Source: Eledone cirrhosa (lineage: Eukaryota). Taken from it: a stretch of 64,000 nt of DNA. A program made the translations under genes and the position numbers. The first letter of the stretch is position 1. Each line of letters opens with the position of its first letter. The notes beneath the pieces were generated by a model that saw only the letters and a program-made list of their open reading frames with translations, searched no databases and was not told the origin of the DNA. This document shows positions 5,689 through 60,620 of this stretch, piece by piece. The stretch spans positions 127,968,001 to 128,032,000 of the forward strand of contig OZ024743.1 of NCBI GenBank assembly GCA_964016885.1, read 5' to 3'.

Positions 5689-6355
5689 AAATTGGAGCTC
5701 GCTTCAAGCATAGCTTTATACAATATGTATAGAAATTTCGTATTTCGAAAGAAATACGATTTTAGGAAGCCGTGGCTATGCGAAGACCGGGTGGTTAACG
5801 GCCTCTGGTGTAGTCCAGCAGAAGCAAAGGGGACAGCCGTCTATGCATTTCAGGCTTGACTGGCCATTGTCAGGACGATCCCTCAGGCTGCTCTGCGACG
5901 GCTGGACTTGAAAACAGCCGAGAATATATAGTTTTCTCGTCTGTGTAAATGAGGTGATTAATCTCATTTGCATATGAAGCTGAATAAGTCGGCTCAACTT
6001 ATAATAGAAAAGAAATAGGATTTTGCTTCATGCATAGCATTATAGAATATGTATGGAAATTTCGCATATCGAAAGAAATACGATTCTAGGAAGCCGTAGC
6101 TATGCGAACACCGGGAGGCTAACGCCCTCTGGGTTTGTCCAGCAGAAGCAGGGGGGGGGGGGAGTTGAGCCAACTTATGGTGCTTCATATGCAAATGACA
6201 TTAATCACCTCATTTACACAGACGAGAAAACTATATATTCTCGGCTGTTTTCAAGTCCAGCAGTCGCAGAGCAGGCTGAGGGATCCTCCTGACGATGGCC
6301 TGTCAAGCCTGAAATGCACAGACAAGTATATAATGTGAAATGAAACTGGAAGGCC
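5686..6355. mobile_element. Composite A-B(inverted)-A-B element in (TA)n carrying a hammerhead motif in B
   Basis: A ~5686-5830 is a direct repeat of ~6010-6150; B 5839-5999 is the reverse complement of 6163-6323; flanked by (TA)n. Confidence 0.8.
6286..6323 (+). ncRNA. Minimal type I hammerhead ribozyme motif (each of the two copies has a core substitution)
   Basis: ctc CTGACGA tggc ctgtcaa gcct GAAA tgca c a gac; the mirror copy on minus (5839-5876) reads gtc CTGACAA...GAAA tgca T A gac; their consensus is canonical. Confidence 0.7.
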
Positions 6356-10136: not shown

Positions 10137-10173
<37 letters not shown>

Positions 10174-10179
<6 letters not shown>

Positions 10180-10606
10180 ATGATATTAATAAATGGAAGC
10201 TATATTTATAAAACCATATTTATTCTATTATATAAATTTCAAGGGTACCAAAACTTTGGTACGCTCTCATCAGATAAAATACAAAGTTTGTTTTATAAAT
10301 ATTGACATATCCAGGAAGGAGATCTTAACGGTTCAAGTTTATCCAGGAAAAATCTTGAACAGTTAAGATCTCCTTCCTGGATATGTCAATATTTATAAAA
10401 CAAACTTTGTATTTTATCTGATGAGAGCGTACCAAAGTTTTGGTACCCTTGAAATATATATAATAGAATAAATATAGTTTTATAAATATAGTTTTCATTT
10501 ATTTAATATCATTGATATTATACTCCAGAAAACTTGTCGAGTGCTTCGAATCAGTTATAAATATATATGTTGAATTACCAACAAATTAAATATCCCTTTT
10601 TGCTTA
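10174..10606. mobile_element. Fold-back mini-element (~165-bp arms, 10174-10337 / 10354-10518) with hammerheads and a one-sided tail, in (TA)n
   Basis: Near-perfect inverted repeat centred ~10345; tail 10519-10606; (TA)n on both sides; same family as 53185-53320 and 54840-55189. Confidence 0.9.
10410..10470 (+). ncRNA. Type I hammerhead ribozyme (mirror copy on minus 10221-10281)
   Basis: tattttat CTGATGA gagcgtaccaaa-gt-tttggtaccctt GAAA tatata T A atagaata: stem I, stem II and palindromic stem III all pair. Confidence 0.85.
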
Positions 10607-13270: not shown

Positions 13271-14289
13271 GAAGGCAGGTAATGTTAAAAATAACAACAC
13301 ACAGATTTAACATAGAAAGTTTATTTATTTACACCACCAATTATTAAGACAATTTAAACCCTAACCCTAACCCGAAACCTAACTATAACACTCACTCTAA
13401 CTCTAACCCTATCCCGACATTTAGATTTGCCAGTAAAATAAGCTTAAAAAGCATGTTTCTCTATTTTACCGGGATCGGTAAAGTAGCCTATTCTTTAGAA
13501 TAATGTTTATGTTATTTTTACGCTTGACAAACGTTGTTTGTTGGCGTAATTATTTGACTGTAAATAATTCAGCTATAGGTGAAGCTCGTTCCAGTGTAGC
13601 TACATTCTGTTCATATAGCTAAGAGAAGGATCTTTTTTGCCATTTTATAACAATTATAGAGGTCATTATTGAGTTCGAAGCTCCAAGAAAAATGCAATTT
13701 ATAGTTTCGGTTCCTTGTGTAACAACAACTAAAAATATTATTTTTACCTTTCTCATTGTTATTTTTCTTCCATTCAGTCTTATTGCTATTGTCATGTCCA
13801 GATATGTTCATTGAAGCAAACCTTTGTAAAGTGAATGCAATATTTAGATGGATATTTCTATGATTTTGAATAAAAAGTGTCTTCAGAGAATATCATCTGA
13901 AGAATATCTCGTTATTCAACAGGACTTGTAGTTGTGGCATTACTTTTGGTAACAGCATTCATCTTAAATATAATGAATAGTCTCCCACGCCGTATGTACG
14001 AAAGCTCGCATCGATGGGTGTGTGTGTGTGTGTGTGTGTATATATGTGTATGTGTGTGTGTCTGTGTGGGTGTGTGTAATATAAACACTCCAGGAGTAAA
14101 CGCTATTAGAGACACTCATTAACCAGGTCTTATCATGCCAGTATTTTTGTGTTCTTTGATAATATCCAATTAACAAAAACTTACTGACGTGAACAACAAA
14201 ATTTGTGTAAAATAATGTGATAGTATGTTGTAGAGTATATATATAAATGTGTGTACATATACATATATATATGTATATGTATATATATA

Positions 14290-14672
14290 TATTAATAAAA
14301 GGAATTCCAAATTTGTCTGATTGACTCGTTTTATTTACAATCCTTTAAAATTTATAATGGTATTAGAATGAAATAGTATGGTGGAATATTAAATGTTAAG
14401 TGTTAATTGAACAAGTACTTTCATGCTTTCGCAATCTTCAAGTTCATAATGTGTGGTGACAACTTGACTGTCACCATACATTATGAACCTGAAGATTGCG
14501 AAAGCATGAAAGTACTTGTTCAATTAACACTTAACATTTAATATTCCACCATACTATTTCATTCTAATACCATTATAAATTTTAAAGGATTGTAAATAAA
14601 ACGAGTAAATCAGACAAAGTTGGAATTCCTTCTATTAATATAATCTTCTATACACAATCATACACACCCGTG
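14290..14672. mobile_element. Fold-back mini-element (172-bp arms, 14290-14461 / 14469-14640, 7-nt loop) with hammerhead, in (TA)n
   Basis: Near-perfect inverted repeat, short one-sided tail, TA-rich microsatellite on both flanks. Confidence 0.9.
14484..14522 (+). ncRNA. Minimal type I hammerhead ribozyme
   Basis: tgaac CTGAAGA t-tgc-gaaa-gca-t GAAA gtac T T gttca; palindromic AGTACT stem III; the mirror copy has C3->T. Confidence 0.85.
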
Positions 14673-14686
14673 TATATTTATCTATC

Positions 14687-14726
<40 letters not shown>

Positions 14727-14749
14727 CATATATATATATACATACATAG

Positions 14750-14830
<81 letters not shown>

Positions 14831-14897
14831 CATATATATATACATATATTTATATGTACATATATATATACATATATATATATACATATATATATAC

Positions 14898-14983
<86 letters not shown>

Positions 14984-14989
<6 letters not shown>

Positions 14990-15565
14990 AATGAATAATA
15001 ACATTTAGACATCATAAAAAGGTAATTTATTCCGTGTGCTTACAAATGTTTCCACGGTGGTTGTACAGCCTAGTTATGCTATGTGCAAATTTACAACTAT
15101 TTGCAAAACTCAATTATCAAATGCTGTGACAACTGTATCATCAGAGCAGAATGGTTAAAATGTACAATGTAAATACCCTTATGTGAGGTTATTGGAGAAG
15201 ATAGAGTATCTTCTCCAATAACCTCACATAAGGGTATTTACATTGTACATTTTAACCATTCTGCTCTGATGATACAGTTGTCACAGCATTTGATAATTGA
15301 GTTTTGCAAATAGTTGTAAATTTGCACATAGCATAACTAGGCTGTACAACCACCGTGGAAACATTTGTAAGCACACGGAATAAATTACCTTTTTATGATG
15401 TCTACCTGATTTTATTCATTCTTTATCTACACTCCGGAATACAGAAGGATCAGGAACTAAGTTTCTTCAACAATTCTTCCATAACTCGTTGAGTAACCTC
15501 TCACCGTACGTCAACCATATCCAGTGTAGTGATTAACCATTACTGCATCTAGGATAATCCTATAC

Positions 15566-15570
<5 letters not shown>
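14984..15570. mobile_element. Fold-back mini-element (198-bp arms, 15006-15203 / 15207-15404, 3-nt loop) derived from a Penelope-like 3' end, in (TA)n
   Basis: Palindrome centred at 15205 with no mismatches seen by eye; arm matches 39290-39535; tail to ~15570; (TA)n flanks. Confidence 0.92.
15262..15373 (+). ncRNA. Hammerhead ribozyme with extended (~85-nt) stem II (mirror copy on minus 15037-15148)
   Basis: tgct CTGATGA tacagttgtcacagc...gctgtacaaccaccgtg GAAA c-attt-g T A agca. Confidence 0.75.
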
Positions 15571-15599
<29 letters not shown>

Positions 15600-15836
15600 T
15601 GCGTGTGTGATTGTGTGTGTGTGGCTAATCAACTGGATTGGGTCTACGTTTGTCAATGTAACTTGAGAAAAGTGATCATTGCATTGAAAAAGAAATCCTC
15701 TCTTACACGTAAGATACTGGGAATGTGTTGGTCCCTAAACTGAAGATAGCCATTTTGTTAGGTTCGGTGGTTAAAATATGTTGTTTTATTTTAAATTAAA
15801 CATCTAGTTGTTTTTGTTGTTAGTGTCGTTTTCATT

Positions 15837-15974
15837 TAGTCCAGAATTAGCCGTCGAAACGGCTTGAGCTCAGCCGTCGGGGTCCTACTTGTTCCTATTA
15901 CCCACTCTACTACCCTAAGTATTGAGTACTTTGGTGCGTTATGGTCCACCTGGTTTCTTACCACATTTCCTTCG

Positions 15975-15977
<3 letters not shown>
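15837..15977 (+). mobile_element. 3' tail fragment of a TA-targeted repeat family (same as 60480-60620)
   Basis: gtccagaattagccgtcGAAAcggcttgagctc...cttcgtta then (TA)n; matches 60481-60620. Confidence 0.75.
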
Positions 15978-16058
<81 letters not shown>

Positions 16059-18674: not shown

Positions 18675-18870
18675 AAGGGCGGTGAATTGGCAGTATCGGT
18701 AGAGCATCAGACACCATGCTTTGCAGCATAGAGTTATGGCCCTTTACGTTCTGGGTTCAAATCCCCTCGAGGTTAACTTTGCCTTTCATCCTTACGAGGT
18801 CGATAAAATAAAGTACCAGTAATGCACTGAGATAATTGCTGACCATGTGTCAAAAGTATAAACAATTATT
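18675..18870 (+). mobile_element. tRNA-derived SINE
   Basis: Full-length copy of the 2366-2551 family (gggttcaaatccc B-box). Confidence 0.88.
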
Positions 18871-19105
18871 ATACAAAAAAATCTATAAATGTATAATTTC
18901 TACCATAATTAAATCCATCTAGCTTCTCTTGTCATTCTACATGTTGACGGTGAATTAATACGTCACTTTCCAAAAAACAGAGCAGTGTAGATGAAATATG
19001 GTTTGTTGTTATAAGGACAACAGATAGAGAGAAATACACACAGACACACACACACACATACGTATATCCCTGTACCTGTTGCCCTTATAACAACAAATCT
19101 TATAA

Positions 19106-19161
<56 letters not shown>

Positions 19162-19620
19162 ATAACCACACATAACATCGCATTCAGCCTTGCATCTTTT
19201 ACCCATATAACAGCAAATTTTGTTTAGAGCTTTCAGTATTTCAGAAGGCTGTGTATCATCTGTAGCGAAATGTGTGGTGAGGTCACAGAGAAACTAAACT
19301 AAACGGAAGGCTATCTATTGCTTATTTTATATATGTTGATTAATCAAAACGGCGGTCTAAAGCTGATAGGCTATAATAGACTGAAAAAAGTATATAATAT
19401 TCCTTATGATTAAGAAACAAAAATAAGAAAGGGGTGAAAAACAAGGATAGATGTGTTAAATGTTTCTATTGTTGAATCTTTTCTTAGTCTCGATGTAGGA
19501 AGCTCTTATTTATAGTTTCAAATCCATGACAATATATTACACCTCCGGCTTTAGTAGTTTTTTAATAAGTAGTTTCAAGATGTCCTCCTTCTCCGAATGG
19601 TAGCTTTTACATTACCACAA

Positions 19621-19803
19621 ATAATTGTTTCTACTTTAGGCACAAGACCAGCAATTATCAGTGCATTACTGGTACTTTATTTTATCGACCCCGTAAGGAT
19701 GAAAGGCAAAGTCAACCTCGGCGGGATTTGAACTCAGATCGTAAAGGGACGTAACTATGCTGGAAAGCATGGCGTCCGACCCTCTACCGATACTGCCAAT
19801 CCA
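19621..19803 (-). mobile_element. tRNA-derived SINE
   Basis: Reverse complement of the 2366-2551 family, highly similar. Confidence 0.88.
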
Positions 19804-20114
19804 CAATGCCCCAAAATGTTTCGATAGTTTCCACAAGAACATATTCTAGAGAAATCTATGGAGTCACAGATAAACTAAACGTCAGGTTATGAATTAATAT
19901 TATGAGACATATATAATGGCATTTCAAAGCGAGACTAAATGGATTACAATATGACAGCCACGGGAGAAAGTTATGCTTCTGTTTGTACAGCTGAAATAAG
20001 AGCAGACGTTACTTTTTCATAACATCAAACCTTTCCACATTATCTGCATAGTTATTATACTAATATATATACATATATATAACGTAGGTTGTATGAGTCT
20101 GTTTATGCGAGAGA

Positions 20115-28550: not shown

Positions 28551-29220
28551 TCAAGGTCATTACTAAAGACAGTCCACAATCCTAAGTAGGTGCAACCTCC
28601 AATTCATTTAAGAGAAGATTTTATTCTCACATTCATTCCTTTAAAAATCTTAAATTAGCTAATACCACCTTACTAGCCAAAACTGTTAAATTTTAAATGA
28701 AAAATATAGCCTACAACCTAAAATGGAGTGTCCTGAAGGGAACTAAGTCATATGAACGGGAATTGACTTTGCCTTTCATCCTTACGGAGTCGATAAAATA
28801 AAGTACCAGTAATGCACTGGGTATTTGCTGGCCTTGTGCCAAAAAGTAGAAACAATTATTATCATCATCATCACCACAATCATCACCATCCTCATACAGT
28901 ACTACATGCAACCCTACATAGAATCCTCTATACATATATATATACAGTTCTCCTATATTACAAAATCCTCCATACATACATTCCTATATGTATGTGATCC
29001 TGTAAACCCTGATAGAGTCGTAGGGGCGCCGGCTTGACATACGGGGTTTCTTGGGCATTTTAAGCCTGGGCCTGGGCACAGCAGATTTCTTCCAGAGAAA
29101 GACAGAAAGTGAGAGGAGAAAGATATATAGAGGAAGAATCGACTCCAGTATTAGACTGGTACTTTTTTTTATCGACCTCGAAAAGATGAAAGGCAAAGTT
29201 GACCTCGGTGGGTTTGAATT

Positions 29221-36542: not shown

Positions 36543-37420
36543 CCTGATTCACAAAAGAGATAGGGATGCAGGCAAAACACCTAGATGTGATAACAAGTGC
36601 AGACTCTGCAGAACTAACATTGAAGATATCACCCATGTCATCAGCAGCTATCCAAAGATGTCATCGCGGTACTATCTACCTATGAGGCATGAAGTAGTGG
36701 CCAAAACACTGTACAATGCAGTTCGTAAAAAAGATAGCCCCGATAATAAACACATTAAAAGTTACAGCAATGTGGAAGACATCCATGTACATAATATGAA
36801 AGAGTACTGGTGGAATGTTTCAGTAAAAAACCCAATAAAATGCAGGCATAACAGACCAGATATTATGATATGGGACAGGGAGAAGAAAACATGCACAGTA
36901 GTGGCAATTAGCTGCACAGCAGATGCCAATATAATATCAAAAATTAGCGAAAAGGAGAATATTTATGCAGAACTGATGAGAAATCTGCTGATACTCCACC
37001 CTGATTACACCTTCAGATTTATACCTGTGATTATTGGGGCACAGGGATATGTTAGTAACTGCCTCAATACAAATCTTGAGAAGCTAGGCTTCACAGGAAC
37101 AGAAAGAACACAACTAGTTAGGAAATTACAAGTACAATCCATTAATGGAACAGTAAAAATATGTAAAACATTCCAAAAGTTTTGCATCTAATAACTGCAT
37201 ATACACATGTACAGATACAAAGCATATACACATGCACACATACAACTCAAAACATGCGCATCCACACATACAATAACATTCATATCTACACATGCATGCA
37301 TACATACATAATCTACCTAGTTGATGTTGTGTAAATTCCAATGAGAGAGTCTTGTATCTATGTTAGAAACCGACTCTCTCTCTATTGGGAAACAATTTGT
37401 GAAATTATAAAACCAGAAGA
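36543..37420 (+). mobile_element. 5'-truncated R4/Dong-type non-LTR retrotransposon (zinc finger + restriction-like endonuclease) inserted in (ACAT)n
   Basis: Open frame to 37191: CRLC...EDITHV, RHEVVAK, HNRPDIMIWD, SEKENIY, IPVIIGA; (ACAT)n at 36463-36542 and 37421-37500. Confidence 0.88.
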
Positions 37421-38019
37421 ACATACATACATACATACATACATACATACATACATACATACATACATACATACATACATACATACATACATACATACAT
37501 GATGGCTGCCCTCACGTTATCGATTACGGCCATTTCACAATATACCATTATTAATTATTATTAATTAATTCTATCGTGCAATACCTGTGCGTGAAGATTT
37601 TTTTTTAAGTGAGGGAAGACTGTGCACTGAGCCAATCCCGCTCTCTGAGCGACAGTAGCTATAACCCGAAAAGAAGAAAAGATCAACATCATCGGTAACT
37701 ACTGAGCCGCAGGTTTATGTCGGAGTTATCCCAGTTTCCTGAGTTGCCCTCTCCTAGAAGAATGCCCTGACAAAGGCTAGAAGTCCTTCACTCCCTGTGG
37801 TTTAACCGCGCAATCGGGTATCCAGCCCGACTATTTCTATGTCCTCGTGCATATACATACACATACATATGTATAGACATATTTACACATTTTTGGATGG
37901 CCGTTGACTCTTATGAGTTCTTCTGCCCTTTGTTAGGTTTTGTTTTTTGTCCTGCAGGGTGTCCAAAATCACCCTCCTCACCAAGTAAACTTGGTGGGGT
38001 TGCCGGTTTAGTCGCCGAC

Positions 38020-39193
38020 AACCTTATCTGGTATAATCCCATTTTTAATGCTTCGGTTAGTACAAAACTATCTCTTTCATTCTTTCAGTTAATCAACAAT
38101 CATTTCCCTAGTTCCCATAAATACAGTAAAATTCTGAACTCTAAAACTATTAAGCTATCATACTCCACTGCACCAAACCTTGAAGCATACATAAAAAAAC
38201 TTAACTTAAAGCAATTAAACAACACTACAAAACAAAATATTTTAATAACAGATGAGCATAACGTAATATCGGCCTCCAGCCACTAAATGGGAAACAGGTA
38301 TTACACAACCCACCTGTACTGCTATCCCAACCTATCCATGGTATACCCGCTACCCACAACAAAAACTGTAACTGCCACCTACCTGAAAGTAGTCCATTGA
38401 AGAATAAATGCCTAAAGTCCAACATTGTTTACCAATGCACTGTTCAATCGAACGACCAGAAATGGTATTACATCGGGTCTACCACTACCTCCTTTAAATC
38501 TCGCTGGTATCGTCATCGATTCTCAATTAAACATCCCATCACCGTTTTGTGACCACGCTCGCCAACAAGACCTGGCAACTCCGTGAACGCAACCAACAGT
38601 TCACCTTGAAATGGGATATACTTTCCAGCGCTAGTGCATATCGGAGTGGATTGAAGTACTGTAGGTTATGTAACCTTGAACTCTTTTACATCTTAAAATC
38701 CAAAAATAAATTACTAAATGATAGAATCGAACGATCATTATACTGCAACCACAAACTGAAGGCTAAATTCTCTCACTATAAAATAACTTAACATTCGAAC
38801 CCGTAACTATAAAATTGCTTTCTAGTTAACCACTTTCTCTTCCCCCACACTACAAGACAATACCCTGCTTATCACTATAAATGAAAACTTAGTGTAATTT
38901 GTAGATTACTACTATGAACTCAATGTACACCCACCCCATAGCTTTTGTCTGTCTCCTCTCTATCTCTCCCTCTCTATCCATTCCCCCCTCTCTCTCTCTC
39001 TCTCGTCCTAGGTCCACCTCCCTCCCTCTCCACATCTGTGAACCTGCCCTCTGTGGCAATAAATAATTCCAACCTTGACTATCAACGCATCGCTTAAGGT
39101 GGTCGCTTTAAGAGTAACCAGTATAATAAAACCCCTACCACAACATTTTGATTAAGATATCTACAAACCACTCTCTCCCATTTCTCCAACCAC

Positions 39194-39265
<72 letters not shown>

Positions 39266-39535
39266 CCCCTTCTTTTCTATCTTCCTTTTCTACTCTATCT
39301 TCCCCAATAACCTCACTTAAGGGTATTTACATTTTACATTTTAACCATTCTGCTCTGATGATACAGTGGTCACAGCATTTGATAATTGAGTTTTGCAAAT
39401 AGTTATAAATTTGCACATAACTAGGCTGTATAACTAGGCTGCATAACTACGCTGTATAACCACCGTGGAAACATTTGTAAGCACACAGAATAAATTACCT
39501 TTTTATGATGTCTACCTGTTATTATTCATTCTTTA
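38020..39535 (+). mobile_element. 5'-truncated Penelope-like element: GIY-YIG endonuclease region, 3' UTR and hammerhead-bearing pseudo-LTR ending in (TA)n
   Basis: IWYNPIFN...HFPSSHKYSKILN..TIKLSYS; NCNC...KCLKSNIVYQCTV...YYIGST; TTLANKTWQL...CRLCNLE...LLNDR...CNH; frameshifted. Confidence 0.88.
39351..39483 (+). ncRNA. Hammerhead ribozyme with extended stem II in the Penelope-like 3' end
   Basis: tgct CTGATGA tacagtggtcacagc...gctgtataaccaccgtg GAAA catttg T A agca; small internal triplication taactaggctg. Confidence 0.72.
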
Positions 39536-39757
39536 TTATATATATATATATATTATATGTTGTTTACTTGTCTCACTCGCTTTACGCGTTTCACTTGTCC
39601 CAATAGCTTATTTTAGTTATTGCTCGCACCAACGTGAGGTATATGATTTTTAATGCGATGAAATACCAATGATCATTGGCAAATCACTGATGAGGGACTA
39701 ATTTTATAATATGTAATCCATGTGCAACCATGCAGTATTCTTCTCCCCATATTTTTC

Positions 39758-43958: not shown

Positions 43959-46900
43959 GATAAGACATAAGACAATGTGTGCAGGATGTGTGTGAAATCT
44001 ATCATAAGACATAAGAGAATGTGTGCAGGATGTGTATGATCTATCATAAGACATAAGATAATGTGTGCAGGATATGTGTGAGATCTGACATAAGACGTAA
44101 AACATAATGCATACGGCAATGTATTGATAGTGTATGTGAGATTTATCATAAGATATGAGACAAATCGTTTGATAATGTATGGAAGGTGTGTGTGAGATGT
44201 TTCATAAGACATAAAACATGACATTTGACAATGTATGGAAGGTGTGTGTGAGATGTTTCATAAGACATAAAACATGACATTGGACAATGTATGGAAGGTG
44301 TGTGTAAGATGTTTCATAAGACATAAAACATGACATTTGACAATGTATGGTAGGTGTGTGTGAGATGTTTCATAAGACATAAAACATGACATTTGACAAT
44401 GTATGGAAGGTGTGTGTGAGATGTTTCATAAGACATAAAACATGACATTTGACAATGTATGGAAGGTGTGTGTGAGATGTTTCATAAGACATAAAACATG
44501 ACATTTGACAATGTATGGAAGGTGTATGTGAGATGTTTCATAAGACATAAAACATGACATTTGACAATGTATGGAAGGTGTGTGTGAGATGTTTCATAAG
44601 ACATAAAACATGACATTTGACAATGTATGGAAGGTGTGTGTGAGATGTTTCATAAGACATAAAACATGACATTTGACAATGTATGGAAGGTGTGTGTGAG
44701 ATGTTTCATAAGACATACAACATGACATTTGACAATGTATGGAAGGTGTGTGTAAGATGTTTCATAAGACATAAAACATGACATTGGACAATGTATGGAA
44801 GGTGTGTGTGAGATGTTTCATAAGACATAAAACATGACATTGGACAATGTATGGAAGGTGTGTGTGAGATGTTTCATAAGACATAAAACATGACATTGGA
44901 CAATGTATGGAAGGTGTGTGTGAGATGTTTCATAAGACATAAAACATGACATTGGTCAATGTATGGAAGGTGTGTGTGAGATGTTTCATAAGACATAAAA
45001 CATGACATTTGACAATGTATGGAAGGTGTGTGTGAGATGTTTCATAAGACAAACAACATAACATTTGACAATGTATGGAAGGTGTGTGTGAGATGTTTCA
45101 TAAGACATAAAACATGACATTGGACAATGTATGGAAGATGTGTGTGAGATGTTTCATAAGACATAAAACATGACATTGGACAATGTATGGAAGGTGTGTG
45201 TGAGATGTTTCATAAGACATAAAACATGACATTGGACAATGTATGGAAGGTGTGTGTGAGATGTTTCATAAGACATAAAACAAGACATTGGACAATGTAT
45301 GGAAGTTGTGTGTGAGATGTTTCATAAGACATACAACATGACATTTGACAATGTATGGAAGGTGTGTGTGAGATGTTTCATAAGACATAAAACATGACAT
45401 TGGACAATGTATGGAAGGTGTGTGTGAGATGTTTCATAAGACATAAAACAAGACATTGGACAATGTATGGAAGGTGTGTGTGAGATGTTTCATAAGACAT
45501 AAAACATGACATTGGACAATGTATGGAAGGTGTGTGTGAGATGTTTCATAAGACATAAAACATGACATTGGACAATGTATGGAAGGTGTGTGTGAGATGT
45601 TTCATAAGACATAAAACATGACATTGGACAATGTATGGAAGGTGTTTGTGAGATGTTTCATAAGACATAAAACAAGACATTTGACAATGTATGGAAGGTG
45701 TGTGTGAGATGTTTCATAAGACATAAAACAAGACATTTGACAATGTATGGAAGGTGTGTGTGAGATGTTTCATAAAACATAAAACAAGACATTTGACAAT
45801 GTATGGAAGGTGTGTGTGAGATGTTTCATAAGACATAAAACATGACATTTGACAATGTATGGAAGGTGTGTGTGAGATGTTTCATAAGACATAAAACATG
45901 ACATTTGACAATGTATGGAAGGTGTGTGTGAGATGTTTCATAAGACATAAAACATGACATTTGACAATGTATGGAAGGTGTGTGTGAGATGTTTCATAAG
46001 ACATAAAACATGACATTTGACAATGTATGGAAGGTGTGTGTGAGATGTTTCATAAGACATAAAACATGACATTTGACAATGTATGGAAGGTGTGTGTGAG
46101 ATGTTTCATAAGACATAAAACATGACATTTGACAATGTATGGAAGGTGTGTGTGAGATGTTTCATAAGACATAAAACATGACATTTGACAATGTATGGAA
46201 GGTGTGTGTGAGATGTTTCATAAGACATACAACATGACATTTGACAATGTATGGAAGGTGTGTGTAAGATGTTTCATAAGACATAAAACATGACATTGGA
46301 CAATGTATGGAAGGTGTGTGTGAGATGTTTCATAAGACATACAACATGACATTTGACAATGTATGGAAGGTGTGTGTAAGATGTTTCATAAGACATAAAA
46401 CATGACATTTGACAATGTATGGAAGGTGTGTGTGAGATGTTTCATAAGACATACAACATGACATTTGACAATGTATGGAAGGTGTGTGTGAGATGTTTCA
46501 TAAGACATAAAACATGACATTGGACAATGTATGGAAGGTGTGTGTGAGATGTTTCATAAGACATAAAACATGACATTGGACAATGTATGGAAGGTGTGTG
46601 TGAGATGTTTCATAAGACATAAAACATGACATTGGACAATGTATGGAAGGTGTGTGTGAGATGTTTCATAAGACATAAAACATGACATTTGACAATGTAT
46701 GGAAGGTGTGTGTGAGATGTTTCATAAGACATAAAACATGACATTTGACAATGTATGGAAGGTGTGTGTGAGATGTTTCATAAGACATAAAACATGACAT
46801 TTGACAATGTATGGAAGGTGTGTGTGAGATGTTTCATAAGACATACAACATGACATTTGACAATGTATGGAAGGTGTGTGTAAGATGTTTCATAAGACAT

Positions 46901-49440
46901 AAAACATGACATTGGACAATGTATGGAAGGTGTGTGTGAGATGTTTCATAAGACATACAACATGACATTTGACAATGTATGGAAGGTGTGTGTAAGATGT
47001 TTCATAAGACATAAAACATGACATTTGACAATGTATGGAAGGTGTGTGTGAGATGTTTCATAAGACATACAACATGACATTTGACAATGTATGGAAGGTG
47101 TGTGTGAGATGTTTCATAAGACATAAAACATGACATTGGACAATGTATGGAAGGTGTGTGTGAGATGTTTCATAAGACATAAAACATGACATTGGACAAT
47201 GTATGGAAGGTGTGTGTGAGATGTTTCATAAGACATAAAACATGACATTGGACAATGTATGGAAGGTGTGTGTGAGATGTTTCATAAGACATACAACATG
47301 ACATTTGACAATGTATGGAAGGTGTGTGTAAGATGTTTCATAAGACATAAAACATGACATTTGACAATGTATGGAAGGTGTGTGTGAGATGTTTCATAAG
47401 ACATACAACATGACATTTGACAATGTATGGAAGGTGTGTGTGAGATGTTTCATAAGACATAAAACATGACATTGGACAATGTATGGAAGGTGTGTGTGAG
47501 ATGTTTCATAAGACATAAAACATGACATTGGACAATGTATGGAAGGTGTGTGTGAGATGTTTCATAAGACATAAAACATGACATTGGACAATGTATGGAA
47601 GGTGTGTGTGAGATGTTTCATAAGACATACAACATGACATTTGACAATGTATGGAAGGTGTGTGTAAGATGTTTCATAAGACATAAAACATGACATTTGA
47701 CAATGTATGGAAGGTGTGTGTGAGATGTTTCATAAGACATACAACATGACATTTGACAATGTATGGAAGGTGTGTGTGAGATGTTTCATAAGACATAAAA
47801 CATGACATTGGACAATGTATGGAAGGTGTGTGTGAGATGTTTCATAAGACATAAAACATGACATTGGACAATGTATGGAAGGTGTGTGTGAGATGTTTCA
47901 TAAGACATAAAACATGACATTGGACAATGTATGGAAGGTGTGTGTGAGATGTTTCATAAGACATAAAACATGACATTTGACAATGTATGGAAGGTGTGTG
48001 TGAGATGTTTCATAAGACATACAACATAACATTTGACAATGTATGGAAGGTGTGTGTGAGATGTTTCATAAGACATAAAACATGACATTGGACAATGTAT
48101 GGAAGGTGTGTGTGAGATGTTTCATAAGACATAAAACATGACATTGGACAATGTATGGAAGGTGTGTGTGAGATGTTTCATAAGACATAAAACATGACAT
48201 TGGACAATGTATGGAAGGTGTGTGTGAGATGTTTCATAAGACATAAAACAAGACATTGGACAATGTATGGAAGTTGTGTGTGAGATGTTTCATAAGACAT
48301 ACAACATGACATTTGACAATGTATGGAAGGTGTGTGTGAGATGTTTCATAAGACATAAAACATGACATTGGACAATGTATGGAAGGTGTGTGTGAGATGT
48401 TTCATAAGACATAAAACAAGACATTGGACAATATATGGAAGGTGTGTGTGAGATGTTTCATAAGACATAAAACATGACATTGGACAATGTATGGAAGGTG
48501 TGTGTGAGATGTTTCATAAGACATAAAACATGACATTGGACAATGTATGGAAGGTGTGTGTGAGATGTTTCATAAGACATAAAACATGACATTGGACAAT
48601 GTATGGAAGGTGTTTGTGAGATGTTTCATAAGACATAAAACAAGACATTTGACAATGTATGGAAGGTGTGTGTGAGATGTTTCATAAAACATAAAACAAG
48701 ACATTTGACAATGTATGGAAGGTGTGTGTGAGATGTTTCATAAGACATAAAACATGACATTTGACAATGTATGGAAGGTGTGTGTGAGATGTTTCATAAG
48801 ACATAAAACATGACATTTGACAATGTATGGAAGGTGTGTGTGAGATGTTTCATAAAACATAAAACATGACATTTGACAATGTATGGAAGGTGTGTGTGAG
48901 ATGTTTCATAAAACATAAAACAAGACATTTGACAATGTATGGAAGGTGTGTGTGAGATGTTTCATAAGACATAAAACAAGACATTTGACAATGTATGGAA
49001 GGTGTGTGTGTGATCTATCATAAGACATAAGACATGACATTGGACAATGTATGGAAGGTGTGTGTGAGATGTTTCATAAGACATAAAACATGACATTGGA
49101 CAATGTATGGAAGGTGTGTGTGAGATGTTTCATAAGACATAAAACAAGACATTGGACAATGTATGGAAGGTGTGTGTGATCTATCATAAGACATAAAACA
49201 AGACATTGGACAATGTATGGAAGGTGTGTGTGAGATGTTTCATAAGACATAAAACAAGACATTGGAAAATGTATGGAAGGTGTGTGTGAGATGTTTCATA
49301 AGACATAAAACAAGACATTGGACAATGTATGGAAGGTGTGTGTGATCTATCATAAGACATAAAACAAGACATTGGACAATGTATGGAAGGTGTGTGTGTG
49401 ATCTATCATAAGACATAAGACATTGTGTGTGGAGGATGTA
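43959..49440. repeat. 56-bp satellite/minisatellite array (~93-95 units) with degenerate ~42-44-bp edge units
   Basis: Unit gacaatgtatggaaggtgtgtgtgagatgtttcataagacataaaacatgacatt(t/g); period 56 (e.g. 44227, 44283). Confidence 0.97.
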
Positions 49441-52968: not shown

Positions 52969-53061
52969 AGGATTAAAATACTGGAGCGTGTTGGAGTTAA
53001 ACACCCTCTTCGTATTTTTTTCGGCTTGTATTGGCCGATAGTGCTTCTTGTGGTTTTGATT

Positions 53062-53099
53062 GCCCTGATGAGTCCTAAATAGGACGAAACATTGTTGGC
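53062..53099 (+). ncRNA. Canonical minimal type I hammerhead ribozyme in a ~180-bp TA-embedded insert (52969-53148)
   Basis: gcc CTGATGA gtcc taaata ggac GAAA c-att-g T T ggc. Confidence 0.9.
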
Positions 53100-53144
53100 T
53101 AATAAAGACTTTTGATGTATTGAAGGCTTCTTTGCTTTATTTTC

Positions 53145-54699: not shown

Positions 54700-55279
<580 letters not shown>

Positions 55280-59623: not shown

Positions 59624-59628
<5 letters not shown>

Positions 59629-59790
59629 TACTACAGGACTAGAACTGTTTCATTCGAAGGAAATCATCAGGATTTCCTTCAAATGAAACAGTTATAGTCT
59701 TGTAGAAGCCATTTTTAGAATAAATATTTATACTCTGCTATGTATTGAGTACCTTATTTACTGGGTTACCCCCGATTGAATCCGGGATAC
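59624..59790. mobile_element. Small fold-back (42-bp arms, 59624-59665 / 59671-59712) with truncated hammerhead and one-sided tail
   Basis: Minus reads CTGATGA tttc-cttc-gaat GAAA cagt T C tagtcc; tail 59720-59790 matches 7453-7522; (GA)n and (CA)/(TA) flanks. Confidence 0.78.
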
Positions 59791-60103: not shown

Positions 60104-60217
60104 ATATTTATTATTTGTACAGATTAAAGTTTAACCAAAGAATCGCTGATTTCACCCGTAAAAGGGTGAAATCAGCGATTCTTTGCTTAAAGTTTAATCT
60201 GTACAAATAATAAATAT
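60104..60217. mobile_element. Small fold-back (54-bp arms, 6-nt loop) in (TA)n
   Basis: atatttattatttgtacagatt...ttcaccc gtaaaa gggtgaa...gtacaaataataaatat; arm matches 54563-54615. Confidence 0.85.
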
Positions 60218-60422: not shown

Positions 60423-60620
60423 ATAGGAACATTTTCAAGATCCGTCTGCAGAGCTCAAGCCGTTTCGACGACTATTTCTAGTCCAGAAATAGCCGTCGAA
60501 GCGGCTTGAGCTCTGTCGTCGGGGTCTTGAGCATTTTCCTATTACCCACTTTACTACCCTAAGTATTGAGTACTCTGATGCGTTATGGTCCATCTGGTTC
60601 CTTACCACACTTCCTTCGTT
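60423..60620. mobile_element. Small fold-back (60423-60479 / 60485-60542) with one-sided tail in (TA)n
   Basis: cagagctcaagccgtttcgacgactatttct agtcc agaaatagccgtcgaagcggcttgagctctg; tail matches 15837-15977. Confidence 0.8.

Follow-up and report, generated by a model that had tools for sequence, protein, structure and literature searches.

The palindrome at 15006–15404 of the window (the whole 64,000-nucleotide stretch of Eledone cirrhosa contig OZ024743.1 that was analysed) is a Hydra-clade Penelope-like element (PLE) inserted into (TA)n in head-to-head form and with severe 5′ truncation. The locus is an ordinary one-off product, one of dozens of the same design in the genome, and its structure is of a known kind. 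The useful result is a family-level pairing rule. Head-to-head insertions of this element strictly combine one tailed with one tail-less end, a pattern that points to one RNA, read from two fixed start sites, as the likely template of each insertion. If true, a single genome shows how the inverted pLTRs and one-sided tails of PLEs arise, an origin named as unresolved in the available text of PMC8557442 and PMC3846280.

Structure of the palindrome

An exact scan returned 15006–15203 and 15207–15404 as the longest perfect palindrome, confirming the original prediction of an apparently perfect palindrome with 198-bp arms and a 3-nt loop. The loop, GAG at 15204–15206, is flanked by TA on both sides. 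Imperfect arms reach 220 bp (outer limits 14984 and 15426), adding four mismatches at positions 199, 200, 203 and 205 from the loop, all within the outer 22 bp. The left arm (14984–15208, minus strand) is a tail-less PLE 3′ end that stops against (TA)n at a position termed site B. The right arm (15207–15426, plus strand) contains the matching 220 nt of the element, read in sense, and continues into a 144-nt tail (15427–15570, plus strand), present on this arm only, that runs from site B to a second position termed site A. This continuation had earlier been overlooked as element sequence. Both arms contain the TA at 15207–15208, a 2-nt overlap that bears out the microhomology proposed at the loop. 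As had also been noticed, the left arm includes 5 nt more of the element at its 5′ side; it aligns from position 39291 of a related copy in the window, 5 nt beyond the right arm.

The insertion is bordered by a (TA)n-rich microsatellite on the left (14680–14985) and a (TA)n microsatellite on the right (15569–15596), and no target-site duplication was readable in this flanking (TA)n. As DNA, the 443-nt palindromic stretch has a predicted hairpin fold of −252 kcal/mol.

The element family

When the arm was queried against its own 3.0-Gb genome, the best non-self match was 98% among the best 40 of 1709 candidates scored. The same 144 nt as 15427–15570 follow the arm in most of the 30 loci retrieved and are therefore element tail, which starts at site B and ends at site A against (TA)n. 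Exact 30-mers counted 1233 tail-less ends against TA and 318 read-throughs into the tail, numbers that are lower bounds and not mutually comparable, the two patterns favouring different subfamilies. TA runs follow most of the A and B ends examined, in a locus sample part of which was picked with a TA-containing pattern, and both ends of the window palindrome. In some subfamilies the tail is longer and its last stretch different.

Longer copies of the family carry RT, a cysteine linker and GIY-YIG. Complete RT plus GIY-YIG ORFs of 773 and 775 aa were present in two of 16 long loci, both on the minus strand (L255, 1733–4054; L256, 2016–4343, within a large inverted double insertion). This intact-ORF subfamily is only ~90% like the window arm plus tail, and the actual source of the window insertion has thus not been located. 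The unit measures ~3.18 kb. Partial tandems occur among the family loci as well as inverted copies, and in them 48 nt separate site A from the ATG of the next ORF; a reading of the tail as the start of the ORF was rejected on this ground. The 773-aa ORF contains RWK (aa 37), DKT (aa 115), YRDD (aa 346), CxCX5C (aa 633), CxxC (aa 731) and CxH (aa 759), and 31 longer homologues are 35–47% identical to the RT part. Pfam returned neither an RT nor a GIY-YIG match for the whole 773- and 775-aa ORFs. Natural copies (L037, L255 and L256) served as references.

The family has the features of an EN+ PLE: one ORF with RT followed by GIY-YIG, pLTRs formed from direct or inverted partial tandems, an optional tail at one end, and a hammerhead motif in the pLTR. 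The Hydra clade is defined by RWK, DKT, CxCX5C, CxxC and CxH (Craig et al. 2021, PMC8557442). All of these motifs, with DKG replaced by DKT, are found here together with insertion into (TA)n, and by motif match to that definition, as given in the available text, the family belongs to the Hydra clade. Further likenesses to the clade as described there are the single ORF with C-terminal GIY-YIG, the pLTR hammerhead, the partial tandems, the inverted 5′-truncated copy and the tail at one end only. In contrast, Hydra-clade units are generally under 3 kb and the tails of the PLEs covered in that text measure 30–40 bp, against ~3.18 kb and 144 nt in Eledone; thousands of ends in one genome and a 67-nt loop II also set this family apart. 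Two short peptide strings from the ORF were absent from the text of the PMC8557442 supplement, in which gapped alignments could hide them, and the family may be an unnamed member of the clade.

A sibling copy at 38 kb

The original prediction recognized the arms as the 3′ end of a PLE represented at 38.0–39.5 kb, and treated it as the autonomous driver family of the palindrome. Common family membership was upheld by alignment: the right arm matches 39296–39536 over 241 columns with 10 mismatches and one 21-nt gap (87.1%, E = 2e-86). The GIY-YIG remnant is likewise real. Broken linker and GIY-YIG coding sequence at 38026–38788 (plus strand) corresponds to aa 523–773 of the intact family ORF in three frames by tblastn, and the Pfam GIY-YIG score (22.1 bits, E = 1.9e-4) falls just below the cut-off of 22.6. 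The role of driver did not hold. The copy (38025–39536, plus strand) is 5′-truncated and tail-less, contains frameshifts and stops, and lacks RT, the YRDD motif being absent from the window; the intact RT and EN ORF of an autonomous PLE is therefore missing. At 4.6% difference from the right arm, it ranks only 63rd of 177 arms, the nearest of which differ by 2.1–2.3%. The 38-kb copy is thus a sibling of the palindrome. Its hammerhead (39355/39468, plus strand) has a 21-nt duplication in loop II. Neither a tail nor an inverted partner was found near it; a different dispersed repeat (~37420–38023) abuts its 5′ end, a possible place of a former inverted partner.

A hammerhead motif in the arms

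The end of the 38-kb copy that matches the arms had been described as ribozyme-bearing, and a type I hammerhead motif with conserved core and helices is indeed present in the right arm at 15262–15373 (plus strand), with a mirror copy in the left arm (core 15144 and 15052, minus strand), though an Rfam scan of the arms gave no hammerhead match at the gathering score nor at E ≤ 10. On the plus strand the motif comprises a 4-bp helix I (15262–15265/15370–15373), the CUGAUGA core (15266–15272), a helix II of nine positions (15273–15281/15349–15357) with a 67-nt loop II, GAAAC (15358–15362, with GAAAC...GUA spanning 15358–15369) and a 2-bp helix III, the predicted cut falling after 15369. As a sequence motif, it was assessed by pair counts on a proposed structure in 170 copies. 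The core is 1.3% variable versus 6.0% in loop II, with N7 freely variable, and helices I and III are 96–99% paired. Helix II shows compensatory changes (G-C 126/A-U 28; U-G 108/A-U 27) that come largely from one subfamily and thus reflect few independent events. One helix position is A-C in 131 of 167 copies, and RNAalifold run without constraints on 80 copies failed to return the hammerhead.

A change at 15279 that is private to the window arms breaks a helix II G-C pair. The hammerhead fold of the window arm lies 11 kcal/mol above the predicted minimum (−13.1 versus −24.2), and that of copy L037 4 kcal/mol above it. Self-cleavage by the predicted hammerhead of the window copy is doubtful, and the 5′ ends of family copies show no pile-up at the predicted cut. 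Consistent with metazoan PLE hammerheads (Cervera and de la Pena 2014, PMC4209133), helix I has 4 bp, helix II has ~8–9 bp with a mismatch, and helix III is tiny and near-palindromic, implying dimers; the 67-nt loop II and the failure of Rfam to detect the motif differ from the hammerheads in the available text of that study, which had already observed opposite-strand hammerhead motif pairs 100–700 bp apart. Elsewhere in the window, 53059–53103 (plus strand) is a canonical type I hammerhead (RF00163, 35.1 bits, above the Rfam gathering score).

Pairing of tailed and tail-less ends

Loci were gathered with two site-B 30-mers (160 loci, first in genome order, contigs C1–C3) and around BLAST matches (50 loci). 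Picking by 30-mer leans to some subfamilies, and every locus so picked contains one B-spanning arm. A head-to-head partner was present in 75 of the 160 pattern-picked loci and none was visible in 85, of which 60 were viewed only to ±1.5 kb. Removal of duplicates left 90 distinct inverted insertions, comprising 73 pattern-picked, 16 BLAST-picked and that of the window.

Exactly one site-B end was found in each of the 90 insertions. The partner end is site A in 87 and lies inside the tail in three, and no B/B or A/A pair occurs among the 90. Two further long loci, L259 and L264, look tail-to-tail symmetric at the junction, yet they run on across the ORF to finish at B. In 10 of 90 insertions the start of the tailed arm lies no further 5′ than site B, such that the arms do not overlap and nothing is duplicated; the longer arm can be either one, by up to 2.4 kb. 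As judged from approximate BLAST ends, 51 junctions have an overlap, seven are blunt and 32 contain extra bases. Junctions differ from one examined inverted insertion to the next, the exceptions being local duplications and a few end positions that recur. Arms share subfamily variants whatever the spacer, as in L186, where 35 of 37 departures from the column's commonest letter are shared and two differ.

Near-symmetric junctions, with 5′ ends within 5 nt, are 3–4-fold above chance. Nine were found in 73 insertions versus 2.4 expected by shuffling (p = 0.0004) and 2.9 by shuffling within tail haplotypes (p = 0.001), with a weaker excess for arms of at least 100 nt (5 of 40 versus 2.0 expected, p = 0.04). 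The window palindrome belongs to this common class. Some members are loop-less, with perfect junctions at self-complementary sites (L109, L125 and L193), and several near-symmetric junctions fall on natural hairpins of the element.

PLE insertions often have an inverted 5′-truncated copy and a tail at one end (PMC8557442; PMC3846280). The inverted-pLTR Penelope insertions of Adineta vaga and Drosophila virilis, as presented in the available text of PMC3846280, resemble those of Eledone in their head-to-head repeat, junction palindrome with short overlap, optional tail on one inverted pLTR and AT-rich targets. Unlike them, the window insertion is reduced to two pLTR-sized arms, and the present sample is large enough to count pairing and symmetry. 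We found no published count of end pairing in PLE inverted insertions, in a search mainly of openly accessible papers.

Origin of the insertions

Read back from the end products, that is, from the anatomy, the family, the tailed/tail-less pairing and the TA overlap observed here, the best explanation is probably twin priming at two fixed RNA sites 144 nt apart, followed by joining of the short cDNAs. A GIY-YIG nuclease from an intact copy elsewhere would cut both strands of (TA)n. One target end would prime at site B and give rise to the tail-less arm, while the other would prime at site A and give rise to the tailed arm. The trailing RT would displace the first cDNA, so that both arms copy one RNA and are born identical; we take PLE RT to be without RNase H and able to displace a cDNA. 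Both RTs would stop within 5 nt of each other, at the same broken RNA end or the same stall, and the two cDNA ends would anneal at TA and be joined by end-joining. Because one RNA offers each site once, this model accounts for the absence of B/B and A/A pairs. It likewise accounts for the sharing of subfamily variants between arms at any spacing, for the existence of tail-only inversions and for the frequent joint stopping of the two arms. We propose more tentatively, at just short of an even chance, that each insertion uses both fixed RT start sites on a single RNA and never the same one twice, with RTs that often stop together and thereby produce perfect palindromes.

In L1, priming by the second target end falls at variable internal positions, and the inverted segment does not usually repeat the 3′ segment, whereas in this family that position is fixed and overlapping arms are usual. 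L1 twin priming, in which both cut ends prime cDNA, results in a head-to-head join (10.1101/2024.12.14.628481). In vitro, both strands of AT-rich DNA are cut and extended by the protein of PAc (Poseidon_Ac), whose RT begins at two internal positions marking the limits of the tail (Frangieh et al. 2024, PMC11167929). The Eledone family likewise has two start sites bounding the tail, an AT-rich target and a hammerhead upstream of the start sites. The PAc sites, however, lie inside the ORF start and ~30–40 nt apart, while those described here precede the ATG and are separated by 144 nt. PAc also belongs to another clade (Poseidon), and the available text of PMC11167929 does not assign its two start sites to the opposing ends of a single inverted insertion. 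The 144-nt spacing makes the Eledone family an unusually clear test system for two-site priming, offering hundreds of insertions, well-separated start sites, intact ORFs and a countable rule for an in vitro assay. The family also steadily supplies long palindromes to an animal genome.

Other origins of the window palindrome were weighed against twin priming. Fold-back self-priming, in which a tail-less cDNA ending TA-GAG-TA copies itself and is captured by a short tailed second cDNA, is the rival at this junction and rather improbable. TA-GAG-TA, with its 2-bp stem and 3-nt loop, fits this route equally well, and self-priming has been proposed for palindromic PLE junctions in the available text of PMC3846280. 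The excess of near-symmetric junctions over both shuffled expectations, and the position of several of them on natural hairpins of the element, also speak for it. Fold-back would be a branch of the insertion reaction described above, yielding the near-symmetric class only; it cannot have made the 10 insertions whose arms do not overlap, and loop-less junctions at self-complementary sites fit end-joining and not a physical hairpin. Moreover, the tail would still require a second priming, a 2-bp A-T stem is weak, and the other near-symmetric loci lack an excess of differences in the outer 25 nt (2 of 322 sites versus 51 of 2146).

Far less probable is a MITE-like non-autonomous palindrome mobilised by the neighbouring 38-kb element. 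This idea draws on the common family, the common window and the long terminal inverted repeats, but the 38-kb copy is without RT and other inverted insertions have their own junctions. Moreover, the palindrome junction is single-copy in the 3.0-Gb genome, allowing up to two mismatches. The palindrome is thus not an amplified mini-element, which refutes the MITE-like reading in this assembly and leaves the fold-back mini-element of the original prediction unsupported, and the many dispersed copies with the same internal structure that mark a MITE-like family were not found. Hardly more credible is a sequencing or assembly artefact, either a fold-back read or polishing that equalised the arms. 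In the six read runs examined, which contain the family, no listed piece spans the palindrome, and the unique flank at 15571–15817 had no coverage in the four runs aligned there. Against an artefact, the two ends differ as family biology predicts, with a one-sided tail, separate flanks and four arm mismatches, on which basis a sequencing fold-back was rejected. Seven of nine other near-symmetric palindromes (at least 100 shared sites) retain 3–12 arm differences, many near the loop; assembly therefore does not equalise arms in general.

Arm identity and later history

The right arm has two variants common to both arms (15228 and 15279) and two of its own (15409 and 15411). The 15228 and 15279 changes occur together in no other copy and each singly in one other examined locus; they are absent from the 39 other best matches (best 40 of 1217 candidates), and none of these best 40 is a sibling above 97%. 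The window tail has one private change. Over the inner 198 bp there are no differences, the two unshared events both falling within the outermost 22 bp (post hoc probability by chance 0.01). Over 220 bp, the four arm differences amount to 1.9%, the family mean. The later history of the locus was probably ordinary mutation, then one conversion tract that re-equalised the inner 198 bp and copied the two private changes into both arms.

Arm-to-arm conversion, one of two explanations first offered for arm identity, is thus plausible at the window locus, but short loops have no family-wide effect. Loop-size-dependent conversion was tested across the family and not found, arm differences being 1.89% in nine near-symmetric versus 1.95% in 25 spaced loci (at least 100 shared sites, p = 0.91). 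Short-loop palindromes of the family have persisted long enough to gather about 2% arm differences, and the instability that was first predicted for the palindrome is unsupported. Arm divergence does not track tail divergence (rho 0.18, p = 0.26), which makes tails a poor clock. The clearest candidate for conversion between inverted repeats is the inverted insertion L032 (1728–2683 and 2681–4908; G000:C5:97.77 Mb), with a 1.3-kb spacer. Its 856 compared sites are identical between arms, the longest identical pair, and it has five private shared changes and a nearest sibling at 97%.

The second explanation, a very young insertion, was not supported. In its fullest form, the insertion came from a source already carrying both private changes and underwent no later conversion, a history that we regard as rather improbable; it bears on age alone and fits either insertion mechanism. 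In its favour, arms of the family would be born identical, and among the 28 other loci that have 150 or more shared sites, eight show identical runs of at least 150 bp and three, including L032, are without any difference. However, neither private change is found in the 39 other best matches (of 1217 candidates), the nearest relatives are 2.1–2.3% away, and the insertion has four distal mismatches and a private tail change. The intact ORFs found, moreover, are of a subfamily that resembles the arm plus tail at only 90%.

Other repeats in the window

At 14288–14680, 300 bp from the palindrome and sharing its (TA)n run, another family has left a second head-to-head palindrome built in the same way. 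Its arms of ~174 bp are 97% alike and separated by a 7-nt loop; it contains a minimal hammerhead-like core from 14489 and a ~43-nt tail on the right arm only. Inverted copies resembling it are present in L097, L118, L171 and L254. Short-loop inverted repeats with 80–95% arm identity occur at 819–1091, 10169–10522, 54925–55189, 59624–59712, 60104–60217 and 60423–60542, and spaced inverted repeats at, for example, 5839–6323 and 18682–19804. These repeats are possibly insertions of the same kind from other families. Related PLE linker/endonuclease remnants, 37–40% identical to the family ORF, lie at 1527–2032 and 28586–28765. The end of a very abundant repeat, ~100-fold deeper than the PLE of the palindrome in related runs, is located at 15830–15980; it can also end at 15898 against TA, shows strand-switch joints in the reads, and may be a PLE-type end. 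A tandem array with a 56-bp unit, ~93 copies or more and a strong G skew occupies ~44000–49400.
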